A stretch of 56,067 bases of DNA from an uncultured Oscillospiraceae bacterium (GCA_964514175.1 CAZEPQ010000001.1:1-56067), one strand, 5' to 3'; numbered from the stretch's first letter, positions 17,502-52,310 are shown. Numbers and translations: made by a program. The notes: generated by a model not told the origin, from the sequence alone.

Positions 17502-19490
17502 TCAGATCTGGGCTGCGGCAGAGAAGGCCCCTCTTGTACATGTGTGAATATTCCCCACCCGATTGCAGTCGCCAATGGCAAAGAACTGGTCGGCACAACC
17601 GGCAAACGCTACGGCCTCCTGCTGTAAGGGCCGCATTCCGCCGCAGGCCACAACGGAGTCTCCTTCCACGGTCACTTCCACGCCATCTGCATCCAGATAG
17701 GTGACAGTCCGGTCTGTAACCGCCACAGTCTTCGCATGGGTAATCGCCCGAAGCTGCTTCTGCTCCCTAAGAGCATTCTCCAGCCCACTGTAATAGTGCG
17801 AGAACTGAGCGTCGGTTGCCAGGCGCTCCCGGCGGGTAAGAATCGTAACCTGATGGCCGCACTGGGCCAGATACAGGGCTGTCTCCGTGGCGGACTCAGA
17901 GCCGCCCACCACGATCACGTGGCTTCCAAGGGCAGCCTCCCCGCCGAAAACAGCTATGTGCGTCAGAACGTCCGCGGAATTCGCACCCTGAACGGCAGGC
18001 TTCTTGGGAACTGCACCGACTGCGGCAATCACCGCATCATAGCCCATGGCCTGAATTTCCCCAGGCGAGGCTTCTTTTCCAAGGTATACAGTGACCCCCT
18101 GCTTCTCCATCTGCTTCTCCAGGTATTCCCGGAATCGGCGAATGGGCCACTTGAACTTTGCGTAGTCCGCATGGAGCATTTGGCCTCCAAGCTTTTCCGT
18201 CTTTTCATAGAGGTCTACCAGATGCCCTCGTTTGCGACATTCCAATGCAGCCCACATACCGGCAGGACCGCCGCCGATCACAGCCACCCTCTTGGGTTCA
18301 GAGCTGTCCGGGATCATCCGGTCGATCTTATGCTCAAGGCCCATAGTCGGGTTGACATAACAAATAACATTATCACGGCAGTGGCAACGATTACACTTGA
18401 GACAGGGCACCACGTCCTCTCCCCGGCCCTGCTTAAGCTTTTCACCATACTCCGGATCACAGATAAAGGCTCTTGCCACAGCAATCAGGTCTGCCCTTCC
18501 CTGGGCAATACATTCCTCCATAAAGGCGGGATCCTGGAAGCCGCCGTTGGGAGCTGTAAGGATATTGATACCGGCCTTCTTAACGGCCTCAGAGTACCGC
18601 AGCGTCAGGGGTTCCTGCTCCTCGGTATAGTTCAGGCCCGTGGGATGGGCCAGATCCATATCCGGGGCACGGAGCTGCAAAATATCTACCAGGCCTTCCC
18701 AGCCCTTGCAGTACCCCAGGAAATCCTCCAGGGTATATCCGCCCAGTTCCTCACCGGAAACCTGGGCCTCAATGAGAAAGTCCTGACCGCAAAGTTCCTT
18801 CACCCGACCAAATACGGCCTGGGTCAAAGCCAGCTTGTCCCCATACTTGTCCGTACGGCGGTTATGCACCGGAGAAAGGGATTTGGCCAGCAGGGAATTC
18901 CCGTAGGACATATAGAAGCAGACCATGTCAAAGCCCATCTGATAGAATGCATAGGCCTTCTGGGCCAGCAGCTCCACCAGATGATCCAGTTCCTCCGTAC
19001 TTGCCACATGGGTCTTCATGGGCGGACCCATCATTGGACGCCCCGCCGGCATCTCTGACAGAGTCAGATTCCTCGGCTCAATGCCCATCATAGAAGCAGA
19101 TGCCAGAGAGCCATAGAAATGGATCTCGTCCGTCATATGGGAGTAGTATAGCTTACATCCCCGGGTCTCCGCCTCCAGGTTTCCCATGCCTGGGCCGCCA
19201 AAGCTGCCAACGCCCCAGATATCCGGGCCGGCAGGGCCACCGGGACCGGGGCCCATTCCTCCGCCGGCATCTCCAAAGAAGGGATCACTTTTCCAGTCGG
19301 CGCCCTGACAGGTCACCACCGCGGCCCCGGACCGGGCCAACTGGGCCATATGGGTAATCATTGCCTCGCCGGGATAGTTCTCATCTCCCTGGAATGCGCC
19401 GGAGACACTGCGGGTCACAAGCAGACGGTTTTTCAGCAGCCGTCCTCCCACCAGAATGGGAGAAAGCAAATTCTTATATTCAGGTGCCAT
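17502..19490 (-). CDS. atypical OYE-like / 2,4-dienoyl-CoA-reductase-type Fe-S flavoprotein (OYE1)
   Basis: N-terminal TIM-barrel OYE signature LLSPILVGGRLLKNRL. Cys cluster CLKCNRCHCRDNVICYVNP (4Fe-4S). VAVIGGGPAGMWAALE and VVGGSESATETAL dinucleotide folds. AAGGA sits upstream of the ATG at 19490. The ORF-track start at 19550 would overlap a hairpin. Confidence 0.85.
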   Translation of the reverse strand: MAPEYKNLLSPILVGGRLLKNRLLVTRSVSGAFQGDENYPGEAMITHMAQLARSGAAVVTCQGADWKSDPFFGDAGGGMGPGPGGPAGPDIWGVGSFGGPGMGNLEAETRGCKLYYSHMTDEIHFYGSLASASMMGIEPRNLTLSEMPAGRPMMGPPMKTHVASTEELDHLVELLAQKAYAFYQMGFDMVCFYMSYGNSLLAKSLSPVHNRRTDKYGDKLALTQAVFGRVKELCGQDFLIEAQVSGEELGGYTLEDFLGYCKGWEGLVDILQLRAPDMDLAHPTGLNYTEEQEPLTLRYSEAVKKAGINILTAPNGGFQDPAFMEECIAQGRADLIAVARAFICDPEYGEKLKQGRGEDVVPCLKCNRCHCRDNVICYVNPTMGLEHKIDRMIPDSSEPKRVAVIGGGPAGMWAALECRKRGHLVDLYEKTEKLGGQMLHADYAKFKWPIRRFREYLEKQMEKQGVTVYLGKEASPGEIQAMGYDAVIAAVGAVPKKPAVQGANSADVLTHIAVFGGEAALGSHVIVVGGSESATETALYLAQCGHQVTILTRRERLATDAQFSHYYSGLENALREQKQLRAITHAKTVAVTDRTVTYLDADGVEVTVEGDSVVACGGMRPLQQEAVAFAGCADQFFAIGDCNRVGNIHTCTRGAFSAAAQI

Positions 19491-19504
19491 ATTCTCGTCC
19501 TTTC

Positions 19505-19541
19505 TGAAAATCCCCTCCGGGATTTGTATTCCCGGAGGGGA
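19505..19541 (-). terminator. intra-operon hairpin (partial terminator/attenuator) between the binding-protein and OYE1 genes
   Basis: 11-bp stem tcccctccggg / cccggagggga followed on the minus strand by TTTT. Confidence 0.5.
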
Positions 19542-19553
19542 CCGTTTCAACGA

Positions 19554-21299
19554 TCAGCGCTGGAGGTAACGGTCGTATGCGGCCTGATATACCTCGATGC
19601 ACTCCTGCATACCAAAGTCATCCATGGTCTGCTTATAGGTAGCAAAGCTTTCCTCCGTGAGGGGCTCGCCGCCGGTAATGTACTTCAGGGACATCTCTTC
19701 CACATAGGTGGTAATATCACCGATGTAGGTAGAGTATACAGAGCTTTCGTCTGCATTGAGAGATGCATAGCCGGGATAGTTGCAAGCGGTGTCGGAGTTG
19801 GTGAGCCAGTTCTTCCGAGCTTCCAGCTGAACCTCAGTGTAGTTGGAGTCGGTCTTGGCGTTGAGGATATAATAACCGCCGCCGTTGAACTCACAATATA
19901 CGGAGATCGCAATATCAAATGCCATGTCAGGGTTGTTTACAACCAGATCGGTAAACTGGGGATTGCCGTCGGCATCTCGCTCCCAGGACTTGCCTTCGAT
20001 GCCGTAGTTGGCCAGCAGGCAGCCTTCCTCGGTGTACCAGTAGTTACACCATGCCATGGCCAGTTCAGGATCGGAGCAGTTTGTGGAGATAAAGTTGCCG
20101 CCTCTGGTATCTACCTTGCTGGTAACAGTGGAGAAGTGGGTAGTTGCACCTTCTTCGCCGGCAGGCACAGGCAGACCGGAGATTGCGAAGTTGGGATCCG
20201 TAGAGGTCTCGCTGCTGTAGGAACGCATCTCATTGAGAGAGTTGAACCATACGCCAACCTGGCTGTTATTGACCATATCGCTGGGCGGGAACTGCTGAGA
20301 AGCAGACTGGGCAGCAAAATCGGAATAGAGCAGGCCCTCAGTAAACCAGCGGTTCATCATAGTCAGATAGTCATAGAAGCCGTCCTCATAGAAGCCATAC
20401 TTTACAGTATCGTCTTCCACATAGAAGCCGGGAGAAATGCCGTAGCCTGCAGTGGTTTCCACCACATAGCCAGCAGGATTGCTCCAGTAAGGAGCAGGTA
20501 CATTCAGCTCATTCTTGAACGCGATCAGAGCCTCTTCCAGTTCTTCATAGGTAGAGGGCATTTCCATGCCAACCGCATCCAGATAGTCGGTACGGATAAT
20601 CAGACCACCATTGACGGAACGGGCTTCGTCGTTAATTCCGCAGAAGGAGGGGATATAACCTGCATCCGTATGTACAGCCAGATTCACCTCTTCGTCGCTG
20701 TACAGATAATTGCAGTAATCGGGTGCAAATTCCTCCAGCTTGTCGGAAAGATCCATAATAATCTCGTCTTCCACAGCGCCTTCTACAGAGCCGGAATACT
20801 GGGAACCGAAGCCATAGATAATATCGGTGTAGTCGCCGGAGGCGATCATTAGCTGGAACTGCTCAGAGGCATTCACCAGAGAGAAGCCAACTACCTGAAT
20901 ATTCACGCCCACAGCCTCGTTAATTGCCAGATAAATTTCCTTATTGGATACATCGTCCAGGAAATTGGGCACAAAGGGCGGATAGCTGTACCAGTAGGTC
21001 AGGGTCTCAGAACCATCCGCTACGGGATAATTCAGGGAATCCAGCACCACAGGTCCTTCCTCTGCGGGTTCTTCCGCTACGGGCTCTTCCACCACGGACT
21101 CTTCCACGGGGGGAGCCTCTTCCTCGGGGGCCTCTGCAGTTGCTTCCTCTTCCACAGGAGCAGCTACTTCAGCTTCCTCGACTGTACTTTCCACCGCTGC
21201 GCTTTCAGGGGTGGACTCTGCCACGGATTCAGAGCTGCCGCAGGCCACCAGGCCAAAGAGCAGGCACAAAACCATCAGCAATGAAATTAGTCTCTTCAT
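19554..21299 (-). CDS. large extracellular solute-binding lipoprotein (ABC family-1), orphan
   Basis: MKRLISLLMVLCLLFGLVACGSS lipobox and an acidic linker EEAEVAAPVEEEATAEAPEEEAPPVEE. GGAGGAA lies 6 nt upstream of the ATG at 21299. Confidence 0.85.
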   Translation of the reverse strand: MKRLISLLMVLCLLFGLVACGSSESVAESTPESAAVESTVEEAEVAAPVEEEATAEAPEEEAPPVEESVVEEPVAEEPAEEGPVVLDSLNYPVADGSETLTYWYSYPPFVPNFLDDVSNKEIYLAINEAVGVNIQVVGFSLVNASEQFQLMIASGDYTDIIYGFGSQYSGSVEGAVEDEIIMDLSDKLEEFAPDYCNYLYSDEEVNLAVHTDAGYIPSFCGINDEARSVNGGLIIRTDYLDAVGMEMPSTYEELEEALIAFKNELNVPAPYWSNPAGYVVETTAGYGISPGFYVEDDTVKYGFYEDGFYDYLTMMNRWFTEGLLYSDFAAQSASQQFPPSDMVNNSQVGVWFNSLNEMRSYSSETSTDPNFAISGLPVPAGEEGATTHFSTVTSKVDTRGGNFISTNCSDPELAMAWCNYWYTEEGCLLANYGIEGKSWERDADGNPQFTDLVVNNPDMAFDIAISVYCEFNGGGYYILNAKTDSNYTEVQLEARKNWLTNSDTACNYPGYASLNADESSVYSTYIGDITTYVEEMSLKYITGGEPLTEESFATYKQTMDDFGMQECIEVYQAAYDRYLQR

Positions 21300-21322
21300 T
21301 AACAATTCCTCCATTCCTTAAT

Positions 21323-22232: not shown

Positions 22233-23000
22233 TTACTTGTACAGGCCAATCTTATAGCAGGCAGGCTTTCCGTCTGCGTTGTAGGCCTTGGTGTTGTCGA
22301 AGGAGTAATAGGGTCGGGGCAGGCGCTCCCAGACGTCTACCCAGCCGTACAGAGAGTCATAAGCCACATCCCGGATCGTAGGATCGCCGCAGGCCTGTTC
22401 GACAATGTCTGCGCCCCAGGGAGCTTCGGGATCCAGATCGCCGTAGGACTTGCCGGCGGGGATAATGTGATCGTAGGTAATGAGCAGATGCCAGATCTTC
22501 CAGGTGTCATCCTCTTTTTTCAGATCCGCAAAGACTTTGGCAAAGGTAAAGTTGCTGTCAGAGCTGCCTTCGGCATCGCCCACACAGTAAAGACCGCAAT
22601 CGTAGCCGATATATTTGGCGGTAAGGCCGTCCCCTGCCAATTCAATGTAGGGCGTATTCATTGTGTGAACGAAGGATGCGCCATAGCCCAGGTTTTTCTC
22701 GCTGAGCTCCACGCCCTTCTTCTCATGGTACAGCTTCAGGTTGTCCACGCGGGCATCATACTGATCCTTCACATAGTGCTTTATGATATTCTCCAGGCCT
22801 ACGTAATAGCCGTTGTTATAGCCCAGAGACGCAGTTGCCAGATTTTCTTCCTTAGAGACCCAAAGCTCCGTGATGCAACGGCGGCGGTCATCGTTGGCGG
22901 TATAGTATGCATAGCGGTTTAAAAGATCCTTGATCTCTTCCTTGTCCCAGAGCCGCCAAACCTGCTCCTCAGGGGTCAAATGTAAATTCATTTCTGCCAT
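22233..23000 (-). CDS. NTF2-like (SnoaL_4-type) protein, subfamily B, copy 1
   Basis: EEIKDLLNRYAYYTANDD helix-1 motif, LWVS...TASLGYNNGYYVG, and DDTWKIWHLL terminal strand motif. AAGGAGG RBS. Confidence 0.7.
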   Translation of the reverse strand: MAEMNLHLTPEEQVWRLWDKEEIKDLLNRYAYYTANDDRRRCITELWVSKEENLATASLGYNNGYYVGLENIIKHYVKDQYDARVDNLKLYHEKKGVELSEKNLGYGASFVHTMNTPYIELAGDGLTAKYIGYDCGLYCVGDAEGSSDSNFTFAKVFADLKKEDDTWKIWHLLITYDHIIPAGKSYGDLDPEAPWGADIVEQACGDPTIRDVAYDSLYGWVDVWERLPRPYYSFDNTKAYNADGKPACYKIGLYK

Positions 23001-23014: not shown

Positions 23015-23743
23015 TTACACGCTGTAGCTGAAGGTTTCAGCAAAGGTCTTGTATGGCTCCGGTACCCGAGGCGAGGGGGTAAAGGGGCGATCGGCCCGAT
23101 AGGTTTCCCGCAGGGTGCAGGGCTTTGTAGGAGCCGGGAACTGCAGGGAAGCCATCTCCGCAAAAGCGGGATCTACAGGCAGCGCTTCCGGCGTGTCCGT
23201 CAGATTGAGACCCTGGCGGCAATCCACTTCATGGAGGTCCAGCATATGCCAGATCTTCCAGGTGCCGTCCTCCAGGATAAAGTCCACGGCCCAATAGCTG
23301 AAATCCCAGAAGGAAACAGGGCCTGCTTCTGTGACCTTTTCCACCAGGCCACGAACCACCCAAAGTCCCTTGGCAGTCTGAAGATCGTCAGCTACCTCCA
23401 CCACCTGCGTATCTATGGGACGGTAGGATATCTGCCCAACGCCGAAGCATTCCTCGTCAGATTTATCCCCCAGTTTCTCCGGGAAGCGGGCCTTAATGAG
23501 TCGGCTTGCCAGAGCGATTTCCTCAGCCAGTGCGCTGTAATAACCTTTCACCGCCTCCTGGCCCAGATAATAGCCTTCATTGACACCAAGGCTCACATCC
23601 TCACGGCTGCTCCAGAATTTCGCCAGAGCGCCCTCCTGCTTGATGCAATAGCTTTGGGAATACTTACCCATAATGTTCTGGACCTCGCGGCGGATTTCCC
23701 AGCGGGTCAGAAGATGCTCCGCTGTAAAGTCTTTTTTTCGCAT
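23015..23743 (-). CDS. NTF2-like (SnoaL_4-type) protein, subfamily A, copy 1
   Basis: FWSSREDVSLGVNEGYYLGQEAVKGYY, GPVSFW, EDGTWKIWHML, and tail VPEPYKTFAETFSYSV. Confidence 0.7.
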   Translation of the reverse strand: MRKKDFTAEHLLTRWEIRREVQNIMGKYSQSYCIKQEGALAKFWSSREDVSLGVNEGYYLGQEAVKGYYSALAEEIALASRLIKARFPEKLGDKSDEECFGVGQISYRPIDTQVVEVADDLQTAKGLWVVRGLVEKVTEAGPVSFWDFSYWAVDFILEDGTWKIWHMLDLHEVDCRQGLNLTDTPEALPVDPAFAEMASLQFPAPTKPCTLRETYRADRPFTPSPRVPEPYKTFAETFSYSV

Positions 23744-23921: not shown

Positions 23922-25244
23922 ATGGCTCAGGTAAGAAATTTAGAGGAAGAATGCCGCATTCTTCAGGCGGAAAATGCCCGGCTGCGGCAGGAGTGCCTGA
24001 AATATCGGCAGCAGGAACTAATGGAACATCTGCTCCGGGGAGAGTTTGTCTCCGGCCAGAAGATCCGTGCGGATCTCCACGAAGTAGGGATCGATCTGAC
24101 AAAGGATTCCTATATCGAATTGTATGTGAACGTACTTATGCTGCCCCCAGCCCCCGAAGGGCCCCCGGATGACATAGGGCTTCCCCCTGTGGACTTTAAA
24201 GCCATATATGAGGACGGCATCTCCGGTCTGATCCGGCAATGCTACCCGGATTCCTTTGCGGTTTCGGCCCGTTGCGGTTCCGGGATCGTGGCGATTTTGC
24301 AAATGGATCGAGTCTCCGGCGCCCTGCCGGAACAGATGGATCCCGGCAATTTCATAGATTCACTGAACGCAAAGGCCCTGGAATTGGCAGATGCCCTCAG
24401 CAGGGACCACGGAATCGAGGTCTTTGTGGCCATCAGCCGACCACATCACGGTGTTGACGGCATTCCCGATGCCCATCAGGAGATCCTGGAAATCGACAAC
24501 TATCGCGCGGTAATGGGAATCGACGTACCCGTACTCTGTTACCACGATTTCGAAATGGCAGAAGCGGACAATAACGGAGACTATACGATGCTGCGGATGG
24601 AGCAGCAATATCTCAGCAGCGTTGAGCTGGGGGAATACGAACAGGCCCGTCAAATCCTGCAAAGCATGATCGACCAGGAATTCCGCCATGCGGTCCCCTC
24701 GCTTTTCTCCCTGCGCTACAAGCTGTCTGCAAAGCTGGGCTTGCTTCTCATCACGCTTGAAAAGTTCCAGGAAAAAGAGCAGGTAGCGGTTTTTGACGAG
24801 GTGTTCCATCTTCAGAAATCCCTGACCCAGGAAGATCTGACTTTGGAGGATCTTCGCTCGAAAATAGATCTGATTTTCACCCATATCAAGGCATATACGG
24901 AGCAACAGAAAAATCCCAAATGGATGAATCCGCTGCTCAGCTATGTGGACGAGAACTATACCCGACCTGATCTCAACGTGGCATCCATTAGCGTGGTCTT
25001 TCAGCTCAATCCCTCCTATTTGACCCGGGAGGTAAAGCGCTGCACGGGCAGCAGTCTACTGGAGCTGCTGCAAAAGAAACGATTGGATCACGCCATAGCC
25101 CTCATTGACAGCGGTGCCAGCATGGCACAAGCCGCAACCCAAAGCGGCTTTGGCGATATTCGTTCCATGCGGCGTGCCTTCCAGAAATATGTGCAGGCCA
25201 CGCCTCAGCTATACTTCGATGAGCGCCATAGATCTGGGGAATGA
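23922..25244 (+). CDS. AraC-family regulator with long receiver-less N-terminal domain (AraC-1)
   Basis: 440 aa. C-terminal double HTH ...LNVASISVVFQLNPSYLTREVKR...AQAATQSGFGDIRSMRRAFQKY. The N-terminus has a coiled-coil-like LEEECRILQAENARLRQECLKYRQQEL. AGGAGG RBS. Confidence 0.85.
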   Translation: MAQVRNLEEECRILQAENARLRQECLKYRQQELMEHLLRGEFVSGQKIRADLHEVGIDLTKDSYIELYVNVLMLPPAPEGPPDDIGLPPVDFKAIYEDGISGLIRQCYPDSFAVSARCGSGIVAILQMDRVSGALPEQMDPGNFIDSLNAKALELADALSRDHGIEVFVAISRPHHGVDGIPDAHQEILEIDNYRAVMGIDVPVLCYHDFEMAEADNNGDYTMLRMEQQYLSSVELGEYEQARQILQSMIDQEFRHAVPSLFSLRYKLSAKLGLLLITLEKFQEKEQVAVFDEVFHLQKSLTQEDLTLEDLRSKIDLIFTHIKAYTEQQKNPKWMNPLLSYVDENYTRPDLNVASISVVFQLNPSYLTREVKRCTGSSLLELLQKKRLDHAIALIDSGASMAQAATQSGFGDIRSMRRAFQKYVQATPQLYFDERHRSGE

Positions 25245-25468: not shown

Positions 25469-27424
25469 CTACAGCACCCTCAGGGCACCGAAATAAGCCG
25501 TATGGGTGGCATCATAGATGTTATTCCCGCCCTCGCAATCACCTACAGGGATGACACCCCGGGCATACTTCTCCTGAAGGGACTCCAACAGTATCCGCCG
25601 GGGCTTGACTCCCAGCGCTACGATGCAGGTATCCGCGGAGACCGCAGCCTGGCCATCCCGGGTCTCCAGAACCGCGCCGGTCCCGGTGAACTCTAGGATG
25701 CGATGCTCCGGCAGAAGGGTCACACCTTCATTCTTCAGGCACTGCATCAGATCCAGTCGAGGGAAATAGGGCATTCCGTCGGCAAACCGTTCCTCCGGAA
25801 GCAGATCGCAAACGGTCACATTGTGTCCCTCCCGGCGGAGGCTCAAGGCACATTCCAGGCCGGCAGAACCACCGCCACAGACCAAAATATCCTTGCCCAG
25901 CAGACTGTGGTCGGCCTCAGCGTCATGGAGCATTACCACGTTTCCGCCGTCAATGCCGGGGATGCCCGGACGGAGATATTCGGATCCAGTGGCAACGATG
26001 ACTGCATCGGGGCCGAAGGCCTCCACCATATCTGCGTTTACTTCTGTGTTCAGACGAATTTCCGCACCGCAGGTTTCGGCGGAATGGACCAGCCATTCAA
26101 GATATTTTTTCATATATCCCTTGCAGGAAGGCGCTGCCGCGTCAATGAGCAGACCGCCCAGCCGGTCAGAGCGCTCGCAGAGAATGACCTGATGGCCCCG
26201 CTGGGTCAGCGTCACAGCGGCGGTGATGCCTGCCGGTCCGCCACCCACCACAAGAACCTTTCTTGCGGCTTTGGGAAGGGGCAGTGCGCGAATGTCCTGC
26301 TCAAAACCGAGGGCAGGATTTACGGCACAGTGAATGGCCTTGCCCCGGGCGGAGTTGTCGATACAGCCCCGATGACACCGGAGACAAGGACGAATGTCCT
26401 CCTGACGTCCCGCAAGGCATTTGTCCACCATCTGATTGTCGGAAAGGTACGCCCGTGCCATGCAGATAACATCCGCCGCACCGGAGGCGATGACCTGCTC
26501 TGCCTCATCGATTGTACTGAAATTTCCTACGGTGGCCACAGGCTTTTTCACTCGCTGCTTGACTTTTCGGGCATATTCCACGTTGAGCATGGGTTCCCGC
26601 AGGAAGGTGGGCAGGGTGTAGATGCCTGCATCGTTGTAGACGATACCTCGTGAAACGTGAATCAGATCCACATATCCCTGTGCGGCTTCTATGAAGTCGA
26701 GAGATTCCTCCAGCTCCAGAGCGCCAGGGGTCATCTCCGTGGCAGAAACACGAAGTTCAATGGCTACCTTCGGCCCTACGGCCTCCCGGACAGCCTGGAT
26801 GACCTCCAATGGGAAGCGGCGGCGGTTTTCCGGGCTTCCGCCGTATTCGTCCGTACGGAGGTTGCTCAAGGGAGAGAGAAACTGTCCCAACAGATTGTTA
26901 TGGGCAGCGTGAATCATCACCATGGGAAAACCGGCAGATACCGCATGCTGAGCAGCAGTGACAAACTGTTCCTTCACCCGTGCCATATCTTCCTCGTCCA
27001 TGGGGCGCACATTCTGGCTGCATCGGGGAAAAGGCACTGCTGAAGGCGCAATGGCAGGACCGGAGATCAGATGATCCTTGGCGCCTCGCCCGGAGTGATT
27101 CAGCTCCACGGACAGTACCGCACCGTTGTACCGGGCAGCCTCCGCAAGACGGATCATACCGGGAATACTGGTATGCCGGGCAATGTTCATCGTTGCCATA
27201 AAAGCGCCGCCCAGATCGTCATCCACCTGCGTGTCGCCGATGGTCACATAGCCAACGCCGCAGCGCGCCTGCATGGTAACGAATTCTACCATGGCATCGG
27301 TAACGGTGCCGTCAATGGTGCATTGATTGCAGACCATGGGCGCAAAGCCCAGCCGGTTCTTCAGCGTCACCGGCCCGATCTTCAAAGGTGAAAATACATG
27401 CGTATAGGATTGCTTCTCCAGCAT
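25469..27424 (-). CDS. OYE-like / 2,4-dienoyl-CoA-reductase-type Fe-S flavoprotein (OYE2, canonical)
   Basis: 651 aa. FSPLKIGPVTLKNRLGFAPM, HAAHNNLLGQFLSPLSNLRTDEYGGSPENRRRF, Cys cluster CLRCHRGCIDNSARGKAIHCAVNP, and VLVVGGGPAGITAAV plus ILVCGGGSAGLECAL folds. Confidence 0.9.
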   Translation of the reverse strand: MLEKQSYTHVFSPLKIGPVTLKNRLGFAPMVCNQCTIDGTVTDAMVEFVTMQARCGVGYVTIGDTQVDDDLGGAFMATMNIARHTSIPGMIRLAEAARYNGAVLSVELNHSGRGAKDHLISGPAIAPSAVPFPRCSQNVRPMDEEDMARVKEQFVTAAQHAVSAGFPMVMIHAAHNNLLGQFLSPLSNLRTDEYGGSPENRRRFPLEVIQAVREAVGPKVAIELRVSATEMTPGALELEESLDFIEAAQGYVDLIHVSRGIVYNDAGIYTLPTFLREPMLNVEYARKVKQRVKKPVATVGNFSTIDEAEQVIASGAADVICMARAYLSDNQMVDKCLAGRQEDIRPCLRCHRGCIDNSARGKAIHCAVNPALGFEQDIRALPLPKAARKVLVVGGGPAGITAAVTLTQRGHQVILCERSDRLGGLLIDAAAPSCKGYMKKYLEWLVHSAETCGAEIRLNTEVNADMVEAFGPDAVIVATGSEYLRPGIPGIDGGNVVMLHDAEADHSLLGKDILVCGGGSAGLECALSLRREGHNVTVCDLLPEERFADGMPYFPRLDLMQCLKNEGVTLLPEHRILEFTGTGAVLETRDGQAAVSADTCIVALGVKPRRILLESLQEKYARGVIPVGDCEGGNNIYDATHTAYFGALRVL

Positions 27425-27682: not shown

Positions 27683-27705
27683 GTTGGGGGGCATATAAAG
27701 GAAAA

Positions 27706-40628: not shown

Positions 40629-40684
40629 AGACATCGAGATCGAAATATCTAACCGTCGAATCAATGACACAAAGAGGTAGCAGA

Positions 40685-42097: not shown

Positions 42098-42841
42098 ATG
42101 ATGAAATCTTTAACAAGCGAGCAATTGGTCGGTATCTTTGAGGATCAGCGAGATTTAAAAAATCTCATGGGTAAGATCTGCTATACCATCCTCCTGAAGC
42201 AGGAGAAGGATATGGTTCAGCAGTTCTGGTCCCAAAGAGCGGACGTTTGCCTGGGCACCAATGCAGGTTATTATGACGGCGCTGATGCGGTCAAGGGATA
42301 TTACGAGGCTGTCCATCAGCACACAGTGGAGGCAACTGAATTTCTGAAAAAGGCTTTCCCGGATCGGATGGGAAAGCTTACCGAAGAGGAACAGTTCGGC
42401 GCCGGCTCCATGGACGTCAAGCCCATGGATACCGCCGTCATTGAGATCGCCGGAGACGGGGAAACCGCCAAGGGAATCTGGTATTCTCGTGGCACCTACA
42501 ACGATTTGACAGAGCAGGGACCTCTGGCCTTCTGGAAGCTGGGCGTCTATGCCTGTGACTTTGTCCGGGAAGATGGTCAGTGGAAGGTATGGCATATGCT
42601 GAATCTGACGGACGTACTGGTTCCCGGCGGAAGAAGCTGGGCAGACGCCGAAATCGAGCCCTATCCCGATCTTCCGGAATGGGCCGGGGCCAAGTCCTTT
42701 GTACCTCCGGCACCCAATCGTCCCCAGGTATTGCGGGAGGTTTATTATCCAGGCCGCCCCATGGCACCCCTGCCGGAGCCCCCGGTGCCCTATGAGACAT
42801 TTGCCGACACATTCTCCTACGGCTGCGAAAAGGAGGCTTGA
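42098..42841 (+). CDS. NTF2-like protein, subfamily A, copy 2
   Basis: FWSQRADVCLGTNAGYYDGADAVKGYY, GPLAFW, EDGQWKVWHML, and tail PVPYETFADTFSYG. Confidence 0.7.
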   Translation: MMKSLTSEQLVGIFEDQRDLKNLMGKICYTILLKQEKDMVQQFWSQRADVCLGTNAGYYDGADAVKGYYEAVHQHTVEATEFLKKAFPDRMGKLTEEEQFGAGSMDVKPMDTAVIEIAGDGETAKGIWYSRGTYNDLTEQGPLAFWKLGVYACDFVREDGQWKVWHMLNLTDVLVPGGRSWADAEIEPYPDLPEWAGAKSFVPPAPNRPQVLREVYYPGRPMAPLPEPPVPYETFADTFSYGCEKEA

Positions 42842-42843: not shown

Positions 42844-43617
42844 ATGAATTACTACGAGGACAGACAGTATACCGATGATGAATTGATCATTCGGGTAATG
42901 GATAAAGAAGAAATTAAAAAACTCATGGCCCGCCGTGCCTTCTACTATGCAGGTGACCAGCGCCGCCGGGAGCTGGATGAACTGTGGGTCAGCACCCCGG
43001 AATACAAAACATCCGCATCCTATGGCCGCAACTGGGGTTATTATGTGGGCATGGATTCCATCGCAAATTATTATGTGATCGAACACACCAAAAAGCAGTA
43101 TGCGCTCCTTGAGGCCATTCATGCGGTTAAGCCTGAGGTGGAAGTGAACAATCTGAACCTGGGCTACGGCGCCTGTTCCTTCCATACTGTGACCACCCCC
43201 ATGATCTACATTGCCGGAGACGGAAAAACTGCCCGTGGCCTGTGGTATACCCCCGGACACGAAACCCTGATGCAGCCGGATGGCACCGCCAAGGCCTACT
43301 GGACCATGGACAATATGGCTGCTGACTTTGTTAAGGAAAACGGTCAGTGGAAGATCTGGCATCTGGTCGTGTGCAGCGACTTCTTTGTGGAAGCCGGAAC
43401 AGACTTTAAGACCGGCACCCTGGAACCGCTGACCGGACCCGATCCCTTCCGGGATGAGTTCGGCACCCCTGACATCCCCATGACGGTCCACAATCCCCGC
43501 TATAATCTCTCTGACAACTATCCCCCCATGCCTCTGCCTTATGACACCTACACTGTAGCCGGAAGCATGGCGCCGGAGGGACATCCCAACTATAAGAAGG
43601 AGGTTCTGAAACGATGA
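42844..43617 (+). CDS. NTF2-like protein, subfamily B, copy 2
   Basis: AGGAGG (42831-42836) lies 7 nt upstream of the ATG at 42844. EEIKKLMARRAFYYAGDQ, LWVS...SASYGRNWGYYVG, ENGQWKIWHLV. Confidence 0.7.
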   Translation: MNYYEDRQYTDDELIIRVMDKEEIKKLMARRAFYYAGDQRRRELDELWVSTPEYKTSASYGRNWGYYVGMDSIANYYVIEHTKKQYALLEAIHAVKPEVEVNNLNLGYGACSFHTVTTPMIYIAGDGKTARGLWYTPGHETLMQPDGTAKAYWTMDNMAADFVKENGQWKIWHLVVCSDFFVEAGTDFKTGTLEPLTGPDPFRDEFGTPDIPMTVHNPRYNLSDNYPPMPLPYDTYTVAGSMAPEGHPNYKKEVLKR

Positions 43618-44543: not shown

Positions 44544-45434
44544 ATGACTGTTGAAGAACGCCTGGAAATTCTCGAAAAACAAGTTCAGCGCAACAAGGAC
44601 TACAATGAGATCCAGAATCTAATGGCCCGGTATGAATTCTTCCATTCCTGCGGACAGGATTCCTACATTGCCCGGAACCTCTTTGCCTACTGGCATCCCG
44701 ATGCAAATTCTGAATATGGGCCTCTGGGCGTGTTCGATGCCCAGGGATCTGTGGATTTCTTTGATAACCAGTCCTGCATGATGACCGACGGCACTTTCTA
44801 CCGTCCCGCCAAGGGTAACGCTATCATCCATCAGGTCACCACCCCCTGCATTGAAATTGCAGAGGACGGCATGTCCGCCAAGGGCACCTGGCTTTCCATC
44901 GGCGGCGAGCTTATGGGCGGCGATATGTACATGGGCCCCATGATCGCCCCCGGAGAGGAACTCCCCGCAGAGATGCCCAAGCCCCCCATGCCTCCTGCCG
45001 GCGGTGAAAAGAAGGAAGGCCCTCCGCCCCAGCAGGGCAGCGGCTTCCGCATCGACTTTGCCTACTATGCCGAGGATTTCATCAAGGATGAAAACGGCAA
45101 GTGGTGGATCCTCCATCACCATGTCTGTGACCGCTGGACCGCAGAGCTGGATACGGATTTCCTCCGGAATGTGAAATCCGGTCAGAAGAAGGCGCGGGAA
45201 TGGATGACCCAGGAGAAGATCGACGCCGCAAAGGGTCAGCCCGCAAAGCCCGGCGCACAGCCTTCTGCACCCACCACCTACCATTACGAGCTGGATAAGG
45301 ATCATGGCATTCCTTACTTCCCCGTGCCCCCAGAACCCTACACCACCCTGTCCGAGGCAAAGAGCTTCCTGCCTCAGGATTGGACCGATACCTATGACTT
45401 TATGAAAAAATTCCTAGATGAGGGGAATTTGTAA
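44544..45434 (+). CDS. NTF2-like protein, fourth type (D), BaiE-like N-terminus with internal Pro-rich insertion
   Basis: MTVEERLEILEKQVQRNKDYNEIQNLMARYEFF, IEIAEDGMSAKGTW, DENGKWWILHHHVCD, insert PMIAPGEELPAEMPKPPMPPAGGEKKEGPPPQQG, and tail PPEPYTTLSEA. AAAGGAG RBS. Confidence 0.7.
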   Translation: MTVEERLEILEKQVQRNKDYNEIQNLMARYEFFHSCGQDSYIARNLFAYWHPDANSEYGPLGVFDAQGSVDFFDNQSCMMTDGTFYRPAKGNAIIHQVTTPCIEIAEDGMSAKGTWLSIGGELMGGDMYMGPMIAPGEELPAEMPKPPMPPAGGEKKEGPPPQQGSGFRIDFAYYAEDFIKDENGKWWILHHHVCDRWTAELDTDFLRNVKSGQKKAREWMTQEKIDAAKGQPAKPGAQPSAPTTYHYELDKDHGIPYFPVPPEPYTTLSEAKSFLPQDWTDTYDFMKKFLDEGNL

Positions 45435-45473: not shown

Positions 45474-47177
45474 ATGAAGAAATTACTCGCACTGCTGCTT
45501 GCACTTTGCATGGTATTCTCTCTGGTTGCCTGCGGCGGCGCTGCCAGCACCGCTGAAGAAGCCACCGCTTCTGCCGAAGAGACCCAGGCTTCCGAGCCCG
45601 TTGCAGAAGAAGCTCCGGCCGTGGAGGAGGCTGCTCCTGTCGAAGAAGCACCCTCTGCCGCAGAGGAAGCCCCTGTTGAAGAGGCCGGCCCTCAGAAGGT
45701 TGCGGTTGAGCTTCCCATCGTGGATGAGCCCACAACCTATACCATCTGGTACAGCGAACCCTTCGCAGAATATGTTGAGAATCCCGCAGAGGATGTTGGC
45801 GTGTTCGTTTCTCTGGCAGAGCGCACGAATATCAGCTTTGAGTTCAACCTGGCAAGCGTTGATACTGCCAGTGAGAAGTTCCAGCTCATGTTTGCATCCG
45901 ATGACCTGCCCGATGTGATCACCGATGCCATGCAGTATTATTCCGGCAGTATCGACGATGCTGTTTACGAGGATGCATTCCTGTATGATTACTCTGGCGA
46001 TCTCGACTCCATGCCCAACTACAGCTACACCCTGAATCAGTATGTGGAAGCCAAGAAGACCCTGACCAGCGAATCCGGCGCCATGGTATCCTTCCCTGAA
46101 ATGTATGAAGACATCGGCGATATTGATGGATTTATGATTCGCAAGGACTTCCTGGAAGGCTCCGGCCTGGATATTCCCACCACCTACGAAGAGTTCCATG
46201 AGCTCCTGACCGTAGTTTACAATCAGACCGGCGCAGGCCTGGGCCTGTCCTCCTCCGGCGGCGACAGCAAGCTGGGCGCAGGCTTCGGCATCAACACCGG
46301 CCTGGATGACGAGGATATTTCCGGCTGGTACCTGGACGGCGATACCGTTATGCTGGGCATCCTCCAGCCCGAGTTCCTGGATTACCTTGAGATGGTAAGC
46401 GAATGGTATGCTGAAGGCATTATTTATCAGGACTTTGTAAGCCTGGATCAGGCTGATCTGTCCGGTATTTTCAGCGGCCAGGTTTCCATTAACATTAAGG
46501 TTCCTGAAATCGTGGAAGTTTCCAACAAGGTTATCGGCGTTGAAATGGTAGCTATGGCTATGCCTCGCCAGAACGCTGGTGACGAGCTGCACATCTGCGG
46601 CGGCGCTACCTCTTGCCTGATGGATGCAAACTGCTGGAGCATTAACGTAAATGTTGACGACCCCACGCCTCTGCTTCAGCTTATCGACTACATGTACTCT
46701 GACGAGGGCTACTACCTGATGAACTACGGTGAGGAAGGCTTCTCTTATAACATGGTGGATGGCGAACCTGTTTTCACCGACATTGTTATCGCAAATCCCG
46801 ACGGTTACGATTATGCGCTGGCTGCTTATCTGTACGCCACCTCCAACCGTACTCGCCTGCCCTTCCTCAGCGACTATGACCGTTGCTTCGCACAGTACAC
46901 CGATGCTCAGTGGGATGCCATCAACATCTACGCAGAGGACTGCGACCATGCTGCTGACTTCCCCAACGGTGCTATTATGACCACCGAGCAGAAGGAAGCC
47001 TATAATACTGTTGCTTCCGATATTTCCACATATATCGCAGAACACGTTCTGAAGTTCATCTATGGCCAGACCGACCTGTCCGAGTGGGACGCATTTGTCC
47101 AGACCCTTTACGACATGGGCATCGAAACTGCCATTGCTGCAAAACAGGCTGCATACGACGATTATCTGGCTGCCTAA
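45474..47177 (+). CDS. large extracellular solute-binding lipoprotein (ABC family-1), orphan
   Basis: MKKLLALLLALCMVFSLVACGG lipobox, an acidic linker EEATASAEETQASEPVAEEAPAVEEAAPVEEAPSAAEEAPVEE, and 567 aa. AAAGGAG RBS. Confidence 0.85.
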   Translation: MKKLLALLLALCMVFSLVACGGAASTAEEATASAEETQASEPVAEEAPAVEEAAPVEEAPSAAEEAPVEEAGPQKVAVELPIVDEPTTYTIWYSEPFAEYVENPAEDVGVFVSLAERTNISFEFNLASVDTASEKFQLMFASDDLPDVITDAMQYYSGSIDDAVYEDAFLYDYSGDLDSMPNYSYTLNQYVEAKKTLTSESGAMVSFPEMYEDIGDIDGFMIRKDFLEGSGLDIPTTYEEFHELLTVVYNQTGAGLGLSSSGGDSKLGAGFGINTGLDDEDISGWYLDGDTVMLGILQPEFLDYLEMVSEWYAEGIIYQDFVSLDQADLSGIFSGQVSINIKVPEIVEVSNKVIGVEMVAMAMPRQNAGDELHICGGATSCLMDANCWSINVNVDDPTPLLQLIDYMYSDEGYYLMNYGEEGFSYNMVDGEPVFTDIVIANPDGYDYALAAYLYATSNRTRLPFLSDYDRCFAQYTDAQWDAINIYAEDCDHAADFPNGAIMTTEQKEAYNTVASDISTYIAEHVLKFIYGQTDLSEWDAFVQTLYDMGIETAIAAKQAAYDDYLAA

Positions 47178-48209: not shown

Positions 48210-49517
48210 TCAAATATATCCCAGCTTTTTCGCTTCAAACCGCAATTCATCCCGGAACGCCGGGTGGGCAATCTGGATCAACTGCATAGCTCGTTCCTTC
48301 ACCGTGCGGCCACGCATATATGCCACACCGTACTCGGTGATGATGATATCCGCAATATTCCGGGAAATGGTCACCACAGAACCGGGTGTCAGGATGGGCT
48401 TGATCTTGGAGATCGTCCCGCTCTTAGCCGTGGATGCAATGGCAATGATTCCCCGGCCTCCTTTGGAGTGCTGCGCACCGTATGCAAAGTCAAAAGCACC
48501 ACCGGTACCGGAATACTGCTTCGGGCCCATTGTCTCTGAGCAGATCTGTCCAGTCAGGTCAATTTCCATAGCAGTATTGATGGAAACCATGTTATCGATG
48601 CGGGAAATTACGAAGGGATCGTTGGTATAGCTGGCCTGCCGAAACCAGGTTTGGGGATTGGAAGACATGATGCGGTAAAGCTTTTCATCCCCAAGAATGA
48701 AGTTGCCCACATGCTTTCCAGTGTCTATATTCTTTCTGGCACCGGTAATAACACCCGCCTCGATCAGATCGCCCATGACCGGCGTGAACAGCTCTGTGTG
48801 CAGGCCCAGATCGTGCTTATCAAAGAAGGAGTTACCCACGGCATCCGGCATGCCTCCCAGCCCCAACTGAATGCAATCTCCATCGTGAACAAACTCTGCG
48901 GCGTAAGCGCCAATTTGCAGATCTATCGCACTGGGCGTGCTTCGCACGTTGTAGATGGTGGCAGGATAATCTGCCTCTACGATCAGATCTACATTCTCCA
49001 GCGGAATCTCCAGCGCACCGGGGAACCGGGGCAGATTGGGACTAACCTCTAGTATCACCGTTTCTGCGTGAAGATAGGCGTCTTCCTCCCACATGCCACT
49101 GCCGGAGATTGAGAAATCTCCGTTTTCGTCCATAGGTGTAGCCGCGGCGATAAATTTGTGAACGATAGGCTTGTAGTCCGTTCTCCGCCGCATCATGTCA
49201 TGGAGGTTAGAGGGAAGATGAGATGCAATCCCCATCTCATGGCACCTGCGCAGTGCTCCGTCGTAGAGGTGGCAGACCAGATTCAGGCGCCCCTTCAACT
49301 CCGGCATCTCCATAAAGGGATAAACGTATCCGCTGCCCCGTTTTCCTTTAACAAGCTCAATGTCCTGCAGCTTCGGTGCAACCCGGTGAAAATTCTCGTA
49401 GAACAACTGCGGCTCACAGAGCTCGCCGCCTCCGCAGATTACATCCCCGTCCTGTAACAGGGCAAGCATGTCTTCCACAGTACCAGTTTTATTTATATAT
49501 TCTTTCTGCAAATCCAC
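48210..49517 (-). CDS. acetyl-CoA hydrolase/transferase family protein (4-hydroxybutyrate / butyryl-CoA:acetate CoA-transferase type)
   Basis: 435 aa. GDCIQLGLGGMPDAV, NTAMEIDLTGQICSE (catalytic Glu region) and SGTGGAFDFAYGA motifs. GTG start with GGAGG 11 nt upstream. Confidence 0.85.
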   Translation of the reverse strand: MDLQKEYINKTGTVEDMLALLQDGDVICGGGELCEPQLFYENFHRVAPKLQDIELVKGKRGSGYVYPFMEMPELKGRLNLVCHLYDGALRRCHEMGIASHLPSNLHDMMRRRTDYKPIVHKFIAAATPMDENGDFSISGSGMWEEDAYLHAETVILEVSPNLPRFPGALEIPLENVDLIVEADYPATIYNVRSTPSAIDLQIGAYAAEFVHDGDCIQLGLGGMPDAVGNSFFDKHDLGLHTELFTPVMGDLIEAGVITGARKNIDTGKHVGNFILGDEKLYRIMSSNPQTWFRQASYTNDPFVISRIDNMVSINTAMEIDLTGQICSETMGPKQYSGTGGAFDFAYGAQHSKGGRGIIAIASTAKSGTISKIKPILTPGSVVTISRNIADIIITEYGVAYMRGRTVKERAMQLIQIAHPAFRDELRFEAKKLGYI

Positions 49518-50790: not shown

Positions 50791-50802
50791 GATGATCCCT
50801 CC

Positions 50803-51570
50803 TTAGCCTTTGTAGCCCGGGTTGCCCTCCAGGCCATTGCTGATGGTATCCGCGAAGGTCGCATGCTCCATGGTAAGCTCCGGATAGGGGAAGTAGTTGT
50901 AGAAAGAGGTATATGCCTCGAACTTCTCCGTGGGCTCGCCAAATTCCTTCTCCAGATACTTGTCGCAGGGAGTAGTCTCCTCGGTCTTCAGAGTGGCATA
51001 GGGGAAGCCGGGACGCAGGGCAAAGTCTGTACCTGCGAAATAGTGCCAGATCTTCCACTGACCATCCTCGTAAACCAGGTCAGCGCCGCAGCGCTGGTTG
51101 TCCCAGTAGCAGTCGGTCTCGGTGTCGTTTGCGGGGTTGATCTCATAACCAATGGAATACCATGTGACCTGAGCGGTCTTGTTATCGTCAGAGATGACGA
51201 TCATATAGGTGGTAAAGGGATGGCAGACATCGGTGCCTACGCCGCCGAAGGGATTGCTGTCCACATAGTACTTACGGATATTCTCAATACCCACATAGTA
51301 GCCCCAGTTACGGCCATAGGAAGCAGTGTCAGCCTGCTCCTTGGTCCACAGGGTATCGATAATCTCAGCGCGACGGTTGGCATGCTCCAGATAAGCCTTT
51401 TTGGAGAGGACCTTCTTTACTTCCTCCACCTGGTAGGCGCGCCAAGCACGAACTTCGGGAGAGAAGTCCTCGGGCTTGGAATTACTGGGCTTCATATGAA
51501 TCATGGACTGGCACTCATATCTGTCATAAGTTCCGCCAAAGGCTTCATGGGTTGTATACTTGAATTCCAT
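50803..51570 (-). CDS. NTF2-like protein, subfamily B, copy 3
   Basis: LWTKEQADTASYGRNWGYYVGIENIRKYYV and EDGQWKIWHYF. GAGGAGG RBS. Confidence 0.7.
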   Translation of the reverse strand: MEFKYTTHEAFGGTYDRYECQSMIHMKPSNSKPEDFSPEVRAWRAYQVEEVKKVLSKKAYLEHANRRAEIIDTLWTKEQADTASYGRNWGYYVGIENIRKYYVDSNPFGGVGTDVCHPFTTYMIVISDDNKTAQVTWYSIGYEINPANDTETDCYWDNQRCGADLVYEDGQWKIWHYFAGTDFALRPGFPYATLKTEETTPCDKYLEKEFGEPTEKFEAYTSFYNYFPYPELTMEHATFADTISNGLEGNPGYKG

Positions 51571-51584
51571 TATTTAGCCTCCTC

Positions 51585-52310
51585 TCAAATACCGTAGCTG
51601 AAGGTCTCAGCCAGGGTGGTGTAAGGAACAGGCATCTGCGGTGGCTCCTGATAAGGCCGATCCACGCTGTATGCCTTATAAACTTCCTTCTGGACATTGG
51701 GAACAGGCTCAGGAATGTCGAAGGCAGCAAACTCTTTCAGCTCGGGATACTTGCTTTCTTCGGTCCAGGGCTCTGCACAGGGATGATCAATATCCACTGC
51801 GTACAGCAGGTTCATGATCTTCCACTCGCCGTCTTCAATAACCAGATCCGCAGCCATGTAACCGATCTTCCAAATACTCAGAGGGCCTCTGGAAGTGACG
51901 CGGGTATCTGCTGCCTGGAACTGCCAGAGCGCCTTGGCACTCTGCATATCCTCGGCTACTTCAATGATGGGAGAGTGCATATCGGTACCTTTGACATAGC
52001 CGGCACCAAACATCTCTTCCTCGGTCTTTCCCTTCACCTTGTCGTGGTCTGCCCACTTTTCCATAACAAGTTTGGTAAGCTTTTTGGCATTCTGAAGTTT
52101 CTGATCGTAGTAGCCCTTTACAGCCTCTGCGCCCTTAAAATAACCATTGTTAAATCCCAGGCACACATCCTCGCTCTTGCTCCAAAACTGGGGAACCAGA
52201 TCATAGTCTGCAAGCATGTCGCAGTGTGCGACTTTACCCACAATATTCTGGACCTCGCGAATGATCAGACAACGGTCTGCCATTTCCTGCGCCGTATACT
52301 GTTTGCTCAA
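51585..52310 (-). CDS. NTF2-like protein, subfamily A, copy 3
   Basis: TTG start at 52310, 7 nt after AAAGGAGGAA. FWSKSEDVCLGFNNGYFKGAEAVKGYY, GPLSIW, EDGEWKIMNLL, and tail PVPYTTLAETFSYGI. The longer ORF-track version (to 52577) has no RBS and would overlap the HxlR gene start. Confidence 0.7.
   Translation of the reverse strand: MSKQYTAQEMADRCLIIREVQNIVGKVAHCDMLADYDLVPQFWSKSEDVCLGFNNGYFKGAEAVKGYYDQKLQNAKKLTKLVMEKWADHDKVKGKTEEEMFGAGYVKGTDMHSPIIEVAEDMQSAKALWQFQAADTRVTSRGPLSIWKIGYMAADLVIEDGEWKIMNLLYAVDIDHPCAEPWTEESKYPELKEFAAFDIPEPVPNVQKEVYKAYSVDRPYQEPPQMPVPYTTLAETFSYGI

Follow-up and report, generated by a model that had tools for sequence, protein, structure and literature searches.

The DNA analysed here, a stretch of 56,067 nucleotides from an uncultured Oscillospiraceae bacterium (GCA_964514175.1 CAZEPQ010000001.1:1-56067; the whole stretch is referred to as the window), contains three cassettes of three adjacent NTF2-like genes, A, B and C, which keep the same order and together span about 31 kb. 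The order recurs in 72 further cassettes from other genomes. The closest characterised relative of A, B and C, judged from profile searches and predicted models, is LdpA, and C alone of the three classes keeps the LdpA-type catalytic residues. On balance, and with modest confidence, we infer that A-B-C would be a heterotrimeric cofactor-free eliminase/isomerase with its active site in C, feeding reductases in plant-phenolic catabolism; plant phenolics as the substrate class are our best guess.

Cassette genes and their relationship to LdpA

The nine cassette genes and a fourth NTF2-like paralogue, D2, are as follows (position in the window, strand, product; pLDDT, predicted local distance difference test).

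A1: 23015..23743, minus strand; 242 residues, gene 1 of cassette 1; LdpA-like NTF2 core and C-terminal arm ending PEPYKTFAETFSY
B1: 22233..23000, minus strand; 255 residues, gene 2 of cassette 1; SnoaL_4
C1: 21323..22219, minus strand; 298 residues from ATG 22219, gene 3 of cassette 1; predicted catalytic subunit; Gly/Pro-rich linker, then PWPEPYKTLD tail
A2: 42098..42841, plus strand; 247 residues, cassette 2; pLDDT 94; LdpA is the top structural match over the full length with the arm
B2: 42844..43617, plus strand; 257 residues from ATG 42844; the open reading frame opens at TTG 42838
C2: 43614..44522, plus strand; 302 residues; NTF2 core 1-197, disordered Gly/Pro linker 198-253, confident tail 254-300
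D2: 44544..45434, plus strand; 296 residues, following C2; PEPYTTL tail; outside the A+B clade
A3: 51585..52310, minus strand; 241 residues from TTG 52310, cassette 3
B3: 50803..51570, minus strand; 255 residues, cassette 3
C3: 49786..50790, minus strand; 334 residues, cassette 3; long GGPGGAPGG linker

Listing and translation of the open reading frames agreed with an earlier note on this DNA, which had placed nine genes in three A-B-C loci. The note had also described tight coupling with a ribosome-binding site for each gene. Spacers within the window cassettes are 11-14 nucleotides or are replaced by 4-nucleotide overlaps, and a GGAGG-type site precedes every cassette gene, the site of A2 being weaker. 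The start of B2 is most likely ATG 42844 rather than TTG 42838, as judged from the better fit of the ribosome-binding site to ATG. A 330-residue version of A3 starting at GTG 52577 was set aside as probably not real; the homologues begin at the position of TTG 52310.

All-versus-all comparison of the window copies by BLASTP gave identities of 37-44% for A-A, 30-37% for B-B and 27-39% for C-C pairs. Identities across classes were 24-29% and still significant. The difference between 27-44% within and 24-29% across classes bears out the claim that a whole cassette was multiplied rather than one gene, and the low identity between copies of the same class indicates old copies of the three-gene unit, not recent duplicates. 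Profile-profile alignment with hhalign extended over the full length, including the C-terminal tail (A-B, E 2e-59; C-B, E 6.5e-33; C-A, E 2e-28), and the tail motif PxPYxT[FL] is common to A, B, C and D. These alignments confirm A, B and C as ancient full-length paralogues.

The NTF2/SnoaL-like fold proposed in the earlier note was recovered by three methods. In Pfam, SnoaL_4 (PF13577, gathering score 24 bits) was passed by A2 (40.3 bits), A3 (25.8), B1 (34.9), B2 (43.0), B3 (40.4) and C3 (31.4), A1 (21.7) and D2 (23.2) lay just under the threshold and C1 and C2 had no SnoaL_4 match. Profile-profile comparison places C in the same fold with 99.8-100% probability, and AlphaFold/Foldseek agrees. 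A search of the nine A, B and C proteins against NCBIfam returned zero matches. Relatives are annotated in their source records as 'hypothetical protein' or 'nuclear transport factor 2 family protein'.

In a profile search of the PDB, A, C and B each matched one solved family, LdpA (8ABT/8ABU/8ABV/8ABW), with E values of 3e-7, 3e-6 and 9e-4, respectively. LdpA is a 251-residue diarylpropane lyase of the NTF2 fold, a cofactor-free homotrimer clasped by its C-terminal arms, which converts a lignin beta-1 dimer (erythro-DGPD) to lignostilbene and formaldehyde via a quinone methide (PMC9942872). A related NTF2 enzyme, PcfL, carries out the same reaction on a beta-5 dimer, also via a quinone methide (PMC12997858). 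AlphaFold models were examined for A2 (pLDDT 94.1) and C2 (pLDDT 77.6 overall, about 90 in the core, about 85 in the tail 254-300, with the linker 198-253 disordered). Both matched structures with the alpha+beta cone of the NTF2 fold with a Foldseek probability of 1.00, and for both LdpA was ranked first; the alignment of the A2 model to LdpA took in the arm and covered 233-248 columns. The next ranks went to LinA, BaiE, scytalone-dehydratase-like proteins and a fungal gallate decarboxylase. The best 50 matches for each model were all of NTF2 type and none was a chalcone isomerase. LinA, BaiE and scytalone-dehydratase-like proteins are trimeric acid-base enzymes.

The build of A, B, C and D is that of LdpA, an NTF2/SnoaL cone followed by a C-terminal arm; in A, B and C the cone has about 180 residues and the arm 60-150. 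The proteins are equal to LdpA in size and about 1.5 times the size of BaiE and LinA, not about twice the size of BaiE-type enzymes as had been claimed. Since the LdpA arms hold its trimer together, the 'long Pro/Gly-rich tails' of the earlier note are read here as oligomerisation arms. In C, the linker between core and arm tip ranges from near zero (homologues of about 245 residues) to about 90 Gly/Pro-rich residues (C3 and protein P0144) and the tip is constant, as expected for a tethered peptide that docks on a partner.

Low-complexity inserts of the GGPGGAPGG type were observed in C1, C2 and C3, and shorter Pro/Gly-rich stretches in D2 and in the N-terminal domain of a 682-residue ene-reductase. 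C homologues elsewhere are mostly about 245-255 residues long without the insert, the exceptions being P0144, P0148 and P0206. The inserts may be a habit of this lineage of lengthening flexible linkers. Certain C homologues reach 450-530 residues; long open reading frames of this kind lie at L031:9518-10873, L064:9459-10982 and L068:13948-15546 (L numbers denote loci), and P0186 (463 residues) has an extra C-terminal domain of about 210 residues past the arm tip.

Residue equivalences were taken from hidden Markov model and hhalign alignments of 80 C, 91 A and 90 B sequences. An offset of 21 in SpLdpA numbering reproduced the published Tyr31, Asp36, His93, Glu139 and Tyr143, and in NaLdpA the aligned His is residue 97, which is the one changed in the inactive mutant H97Q. 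At the position of the catalytic His93, all 80 C sequences have His (H105), 77 of the 91 A sequences have Lys or Arg and 58 of the 90 B sequences (64%) have His. Glu139 corresponds to E148 in 80/80 C sequences and to a variable position in A and B. At the substrate-binding Tyr143, C has Tyr (Y150, 80/80), A mostly Phe (49, with Tyr in 17) and B mostly Ile or Val. E21, H27, H31, E39, E113, D117 and R122 are likewise invariant among the 80 C sequences, which are otherwise about 45% identical. The cluster of invariant His residues raises the bare possibility of a metal site in C. By this comparison the three subunits are not equivalent, C alone keeping the LdpA-type catalytic residues, and C is predicted to be LdpA-like in chemistry class, yet it is no LdpA orthologue. 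With the catalytic residues absent from A and His alone present in B, A and B are probably scaffold and/or specificity subunits.

The same residues bear on a non-enzymatic role, in which A-B-C would be a cytoplasmic carrier or chaperone of hydrophobic aglycones, delivering them to reductases or sensing them for regulators. NTF2 cones often bind small molecules, the pockets of A and B are variable, and FoTO1 is reportedly an NTF2-like accessory protein in plant Taxol biosynthesis. Against this, over ten residues (His, Glu, Asp, Arg and Tyr) are strictly invariant in the 80 C sequences, among them the equivalents of the LdpA catalytic His and Glu. Such invariance points to conserved chemistry and not to varied binding, and we hold a carrier role to be very unlikely.

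Conserved order, fusions and the proposed complex

Relatives of A were sought in one genome per species; 217 were found, and the 79 best loci were used. Nearly all of the 79 come from metagenome-assembled genomes of uncultured Oscillospiraceae or Clostridiales from human gut, rumen and deer; a small number carry the labels Bacteroidaceae, Prevotella, Barnesiella or Flexilinea. The claim of A-B-C synteny beyond this genome was upheld: wherever the sequence suffices the order is A→B→C, in 72 further cassettes, and no class is missing from any cassette given enough sequence. Several cassettes on one contig are common (e.g. L017, L021, L040, L058, L063, L064 and L078), with up to three per 17-kb locus outside the window. 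Over the 72 cassettes, A and B are separated by a median of 2 nucleotides and overlap by ATGA in 22; in 44 there is an overlap of B and C, and elsewhere the B-C spacer is at most 18 nucleotides. Genes of a cassette overlap or lie no more than 19 nucleotides apart.

A neighbour-joining tree was calculated from 68 locus triples and the three of the window, with genes labelled by operon position alone. Positions 1, 2 and 3 formed three clean clades (71/71/71) and D fell outside A+B, so that A, B and C resolve as separate conserved orthogroups, plus D, as had been proposed. The recurrence of the order in 72 other cassettes, together with position predicting clade, is far beyond chance. A search of 1.84 billion proteins with a C profile yielded 845 representatives with E ≤ 1e-3, of which 95 reached E ≤ 1e-30; this is a genuine family, but a niche one.

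Natural fusions join the classes in single proteins. P0427 (499 residues, L085:1455-2954) is an A-B fusion, with family A scoring 244 bits in the N-terminal half and family B 250 bits in the C-terminal half; a C gene comes next, overlapping it by ATGA, and the opposite strand carries FAD_binding_2 and OYE-type (Old Yellow Enzyme) reductase genes close by. P0462 is a fusion of a C-like and an A-like protein. The apparent A-B fusion P0282 was set aside, its truncated A and junk linker having the look of a frameshift or gene-calling artefact.

An EthD-domain protein is encoded at L085:3685-4362, directly after the A-B fusion and C genes. Two further, more distant fusions of NTF2 paralogues were observed, and the set of fusions and single-domain relatives includes P0449, P0479, P0487 and P0502. 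Single-domain relatives combine a C-like WERYG with a B-like WKIWH motif. The NTF2 domain of P0487 is preceded by an N-terminal EF-hand-like region and a Gly/Pro linker; P0487 and P0502 have hydrophobic starts resembling signal peptides and may be secreted. Fusions and single-domain relatives could represent the ancestral single-gene, homotrimeric state.

By analogy with LdpA, A, B and C probably form one mixed heterotrimer. This reading is drawn from indirect evidence, which is consistent: the strict 1:1:1 co-occurrence and order, the translational coupling, the loss of catalytic residues in A, the homology to an arm-clasped trimer and the natural fusions. The three proteins might instead be separate LdpA-like homotrimeric enzymes that catalyse successive cofactor-free steps and are co-inherited as a pathway operon. 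Each protein does have a complete NTF2 cone and an arm of its own, B has His at the catalytic position in most sequences, A has its own invariant polar residues, and all characterised relatives examined are homo-oligomers. It is harder to reconcile such independence with the missing His and Glu equivalents in A, the strict 1:1:1 order, in which most cassettes have stop codons that overlap the next start, the A-B and C-A fusions and the presence of every class wherever the sequence of the 79 loci suffices. We therefore consider separate homotrimers unlikely.

Neighbouring genes and the proposed pathway

The other features of the window used below are:

FGGY sugar kinase, 570-residue solute-binding protein and two GH3 glycosidases: 471-8830, plus strand; the GH3 proteins have 962 residues with a PA14 insert and 758 residues; left end of the window
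FadH/NCR-type flavin/FeS ene-reductase paralogue: 17502..19550, minus strand; 682 residues, divergent N-terminal OYE domain with a Gly/Pro insert
AlgQ-like family-1 solute-binding lipoprotein: 19554..21314, minus strand; 586 residues, lipobox LVAC, acidic linker; start 8 nucleotides past C1
AraC-family regulator: 23922..25244, plus strand; 440 residues, divergent from A1
FadH/NCR-type ene-reductase: 25469..27424, minus strand; 651 residues, OYE + Pyr_redox_2
Opp-type transporter: 32242-37804; the sole complete ABC transporter in the window
AraC-family regulator: 40664..41929, plus strand; 421 residues, upstream of cassette 2
AlgQ-like solute-binding lipoprotein: 45474..47177, plus strand; 567 residues, 39 nucleotides after D2
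Glyoxalase/VOC-family protein: 47352-47831, plus strand; 159 residues, between the cassette-2 binding protein and the CoA-transferase
AcetylCoA_hyd_C-type CoA-transferase: 48210..49517, minus strand; 435 residues, downstream of cassette 3
HxlR-type regulator: 52552..53163, plus strand; 203 residues, divergent from A3
AraC-family regulator: 53211..54494, minus strand; 427 residues, upstream of cassette 3

From left to right, the window begins with the FGGY kinase, the 570-residue binding protein, the two GH3 genes, a flavodoxin-like gene, a 591-residue binding protein, FAD_binding_2, an unknown 681-residue protein and PucR. There follow the 682-residue ene-reductase, the 586-residue binding protein, C1-B1-A1, AraC, the 651-residue ene-reductase, a flavodoxin-like gene and AraC with LysR. 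The middle part holds ApbA, the full Opp transporter, a flavodoxin-like gene, a beta-helix protein and AraC, and the right part A2-B2-C2-D2, the 567-residue binding protein, the VOC-family protein, the CoA-transferase, C3-B3-A3, HxlR and AraC. Cassette 3 thus has two candidate regulators, HxlR and AraC. A 401-residue open reading frame at 27607-28812(+) was rejected as a gene; it is junk-like in composition, has no Pfam match and lies antisense to the flavodoxin-like gene 27706-28623(-). An Rfam scan of the window returned zero RNA elements.

A neighbour census covered the cassette loci and the 116 nearest genes. The same large binding lipoprotein as in the window recurs in 23-28 loci, OYE + Pyr_redox_2 reductases in 14-19 and LysR regulators in 17; among the 116 nearest genes, 13 are FAD_binding_2. 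Other recurrent neighbours are Opp components, AraC, PucR and TRAP or GntP carriers. NCBIfam returned LysR models alone for the neighbour set. The earlier note had assigned to each cassette its own AraC regulator together with a lipoprotein, flavin reductase or CoA-transferase. This holds in the window; elsewhere LysR and PucR are commoner, AraC being specific to this lineage. L084, L056 and L083 have reductase and cassette together in one operon (OYE-A-B-C). L028 has the order PucR, ene-reductase, a 155-residue protein, a phloretin-hydrolase-like protein (DAPG_hydrolase, E 1e-70), D-A-B-C and ApbE, and in L010 a feruloyl-esterase-like BD-FAE gene adjoins C. The ApbE flavin transferase gene (L028:10485-11582) comes straight after D-A-B-C and gives a hint that some modules use reductases with covalently bound flavin, which may be extracytoplasmic. 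A CoA-transferase of the same family also lies beside cassettes in two other distinct loci (L003/L015, which are one contig, and L008).

The nearest solved structures to the 651-residue ene-reductase are 2-naphthoyl-CoA reductase (NCR) and 2,4-dienoyl-CoA reductase (FadH). In the 682-residue paralogue (17502-19550) the Pfam match to OYE is confined to residues 180-377, the second half of that domain, and the FMN (flavin mononucleotide) domain may be degenerate or strongly diverged; the protein is 73% identical to the reductases at the same position in L005 and L009. The cassette binding proteins have AlgQ1/2 and other oligosaccharide binders as their nearest solved relatives. The FGGY, binding-protein and GH3 genes at the left end fit a role in removing the sugars of imported plant glycosides before the reductase and NTF2 modules act.

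Four AlgQ-like lipoproteins of about 570-590 residues in the window, 1966-3678(+), 10086-11861(-), 19554-21314(-) and 45474-47177(+), are paralogues with 29-33% identity; all have long Ala/Glu/Pro-rich acidic linkers after the lipobox, and none has an adjoining family-1 permease or ATPase. Three flavodoxin-like proteins of 278-305 residues, 37817-38653(+), 9122-10024(-) and 27706-28623(-), are 30-52% identical, and two beta-helix proteins of 485 and 681 residues, 38788-40245(+) and 13432-15477(-), are 27% identical. Both groups give almost no Pfam signal. The flavodoxin-like gene at 37817-38653 adjoins the beta-helix gene at 38788-40245, and the same pair occurs in L013. Relatives of the 681-residue protein were seen in eight cassette loci, and in L084 a 609-residue protein with a faint Beta_helix match lies beside the ene-reductase. 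These genes may form another uncharacterised redox module of such catabolic islands.

Under the reading favoured here, an imported plant glycoside or phenolic would be bound by the lipoprotein and then deglycosylated. The translationally coupled operon would supply A, B and C in equal amounts for a pseudo-threefold trimer, the mixed-subunit counterpart of the LdpA homotrimer, in which each arm tip (PxPYxT[FL]) would clasp the neighbouring subunit. Homology and residue conservation suggest that C would provide the acid-base site, made up of the equivalents of the LdpA His, Glu and Tyr and further invariant His, Glu and Arg residues. The complex would carry out a cofactor-free elimination or isomerisation, with dehydration, benzylic C-O or C-C cleavage and ring opening as candidate reactions, and yield a quinone methide or a conjugated enone, whose activated double bond would be reduced by the flavin/FeS ene-reductase or FAD_binding_2 enzyme encoded in the same operon or next to it. 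A single substrate-specific module would then consist of one cassette together with its binding lipoprotein and regulator. A bolder form, which we offer tentatively and think more doubtful than the general scheme, makes the heterotrimer obligate and asymmetric, with C catalytic and A and B conferring specificity or acting as scaffold; no enzyme of the NTF2/SnoaL class would have been heteromeric before it. Quinone methides or enones, formed without a cofactor from plant phenolic dimers, lignans or flavonoids, would pass to FadH-like ene-reductases in a hitherto unrecognised anaerobic reductive route for benzylic C-O/C-C cleavage. Dozens of such 'polyphenol utilisation' modules, each made up of binding lipoprotein, regulator, A-B-C and reductase, would exist in uncultured gut and rumen Oscillospiraceae.

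The neighbours could also be taken to indicate BaiE- or ketosteroid-isomerase-like modules for steroids or bile acids, CoA-linked or free, with BaiCD/BaiH-like flavoenzymes reducing the products. Foldseek also matches BaiE 7-alpha-dehydratases, FAD_binding_2 and CoA-transferase genes are neighbours, the hosts are from the gut, and OYE + Pyr_redox_2 is the BaiCD/BaiH architecture. By sequence as well as by structure, however, LdpA clearly outranks BaiE as a match; among solved reductases, NCR and FadH come closest; the binding proteins transcribed with the cassettes are AlgQ-like and of the oligosaccharide type; and no other bai-type genes were seen among the cassette neighbours. GH3 glycosidases and phloretin-hydrolase-like and feruloyl-esterase-like genes lie nearby, and many loci are from rumen and deer genomes. 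A steroid or bile-acid role appears improbable to us. Of the earlier proposal of substrate-specific catabolic modules for imported compounds, plant compounds fit the neighbour census and the steroid or bile-acid option has little support.

Several observations count against an LdpA-like enzyme for plant phenolics with catalysis confined to C. Identity to LdpA is about 20%, and the chemistry may differ. For LdpA motif I (the His93-Asp36 dyad), the position aligned with Asp36 is Ala, Gly or Ser in C, beside the invariant H31, a placement that is unreliable. The full motif II (Glu139-Tyr161-Gln166) was not found in A, B or C: Glu alone is kept, in C alone, and an ungapped extension of the C-LdpA alignment puts an invariant Val at the Tyr161 position and an unconserved residue at that of Gln166. 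This triad has been described as exclusive to LdpA. A has invariant polar residues of its own (N22, N55, D120, K125 and D154) and, together with the His of B in 64% of sequences, these mean that A and B could be catalytic as well. The neighbouring genes belong to generic families; steroids, bile acids and CoA thioesters are also substrates of FadH-like and FAD_binding_2 reductases, and the CoA-transferases beside some cassettes suggest acid or CoA-ester substrates. DAPG_hydrolase (phloretin-hydrolase type) occurs in 3 of the 116 nearest neighbours, with the locus placed for one, L028; BLASTP did not locate the other two. Compared with the heterotrimer with catalysis in C, each rival is nevertheless the poorer fit to the residue pattern, the fusions or the neighbourhood.

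To our knowledge, the enzymes with which strict anaerobes of gut and rumen attack lignans, lignin fragments and flavonoids are mostly unknown, and many of the hosts are uncultured Oscillospiraceae. The cassette, being conserved, multiplied within genomes and found in operons with ene-reductases, is a concrete and clonable candidate for this missing chemistry. Were the proposal true, it would be the first case of a trimeric NTF2 acid-base enzyme (LdpA, LinA, BaiE, scytalone dehydratase) turned into a three-paralogue complex with division of labour, which would be relevant to enzyme evolution and to NTF2-based enzyme design. Even if its function proves ordinary, the family merits an annotation of its own in place of 'hypothetical' or 'nuclear transport factor 2 family protein'.

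Comparison with known systems

The literature searched contained no description of a three-gene NTF2-like system. In this respect the earlier statement that no comparable enzyme is known stood; it did not stand for the single protein, since LdpA has the same size and build. Placement in a characterised family by profile searches, which the earlier note had listed as refuting its proposal, applies in part, LdpA being the best match; the three-paralogue version is new.

LdpA (formerly LsdE; Novosphingobium aromaticivorans and Sphingobium sp. SYK-6) resembles the cassette proteins in its size of about 250 residues and its NTF2 cone with a trimer-clasping arm, and C keeps the equivalents of its His93, Glu139 and Tyr143. 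It differs in being a homotrimer of one protein from aerobic sphingomonads, whereas the present system consists of three coupled paralogues (with D in some loci) in anaerobic Oscillospiraceae; C lacks the conserved Tyr161 and Gln166, and the Asp of the His-Asp dyad has no reliably placed counterpart there. LdpA acts on plant phenolic dimers by cofactor-free acid-base chemistry, and the related PcfL is a beta-5 deformylase. The step after LdpA is oxidative cleavage by lignostilbene dioxygenase; beside A-B-C the partners are flavin reductases.

BaiE, from the bai operon of Clostridium scindens, is likewise an NTF2-fold SnoaL_4-type dehydratase of a gut Firmicute and shares the logic of a dehydratase followed by an ene-reductase. 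It is trimeric, and its conjugated product is reduced by the OYE + Pyr_redox_2 flavoenzymes BaiCD/BaiH. Unlike A, B and C, which have 241-334 residues with arms, BaiE has about 166 residues, is the product of a single gene, lacks a long arm and is a weaker structural match than LdpA. The bai operon is composed of baiB, baiCD, baiE, baiA, baiF, baiG, baiH and baiI; no such set of bai-type genes was seen among the cassette neighbours, which are binding proteins, AraC/LysR regulators and reductases. LinA (gamma-hexachlorocyclohexane dehydrochlorinase) and scytalone dehydratase, of about 150-170 residues, are homomeric, act on other substrates and lack the PxPYxT[FL] arm.

The flavonoid pathway of Eubacterium ramulus and Flavonifractor plautii combines chalcone isomerase, enoate reductase and phloretin hydrolase. 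L028 similarly joins an ene-reductase, a phloretin-hydrolase-like protein and D-A-B-C, so that an NTF2 cassette would occupy the place of the ring-opening isomerase. The likeness is one of functional analogy at the one locus placed, and the fold of bacterial chalcone isomerase is unrelated to NTF2.

Neither the fold nor the arm-clasped trimer nor the chemistry class is new. New relative to the literature found would be the obligate three-paralogue operon, the division of labour between subunits, the expansion in Oscillospiraceae that are uncultured and live in gut and rumen, and the coupling to reductases and dedicated binding proteins.

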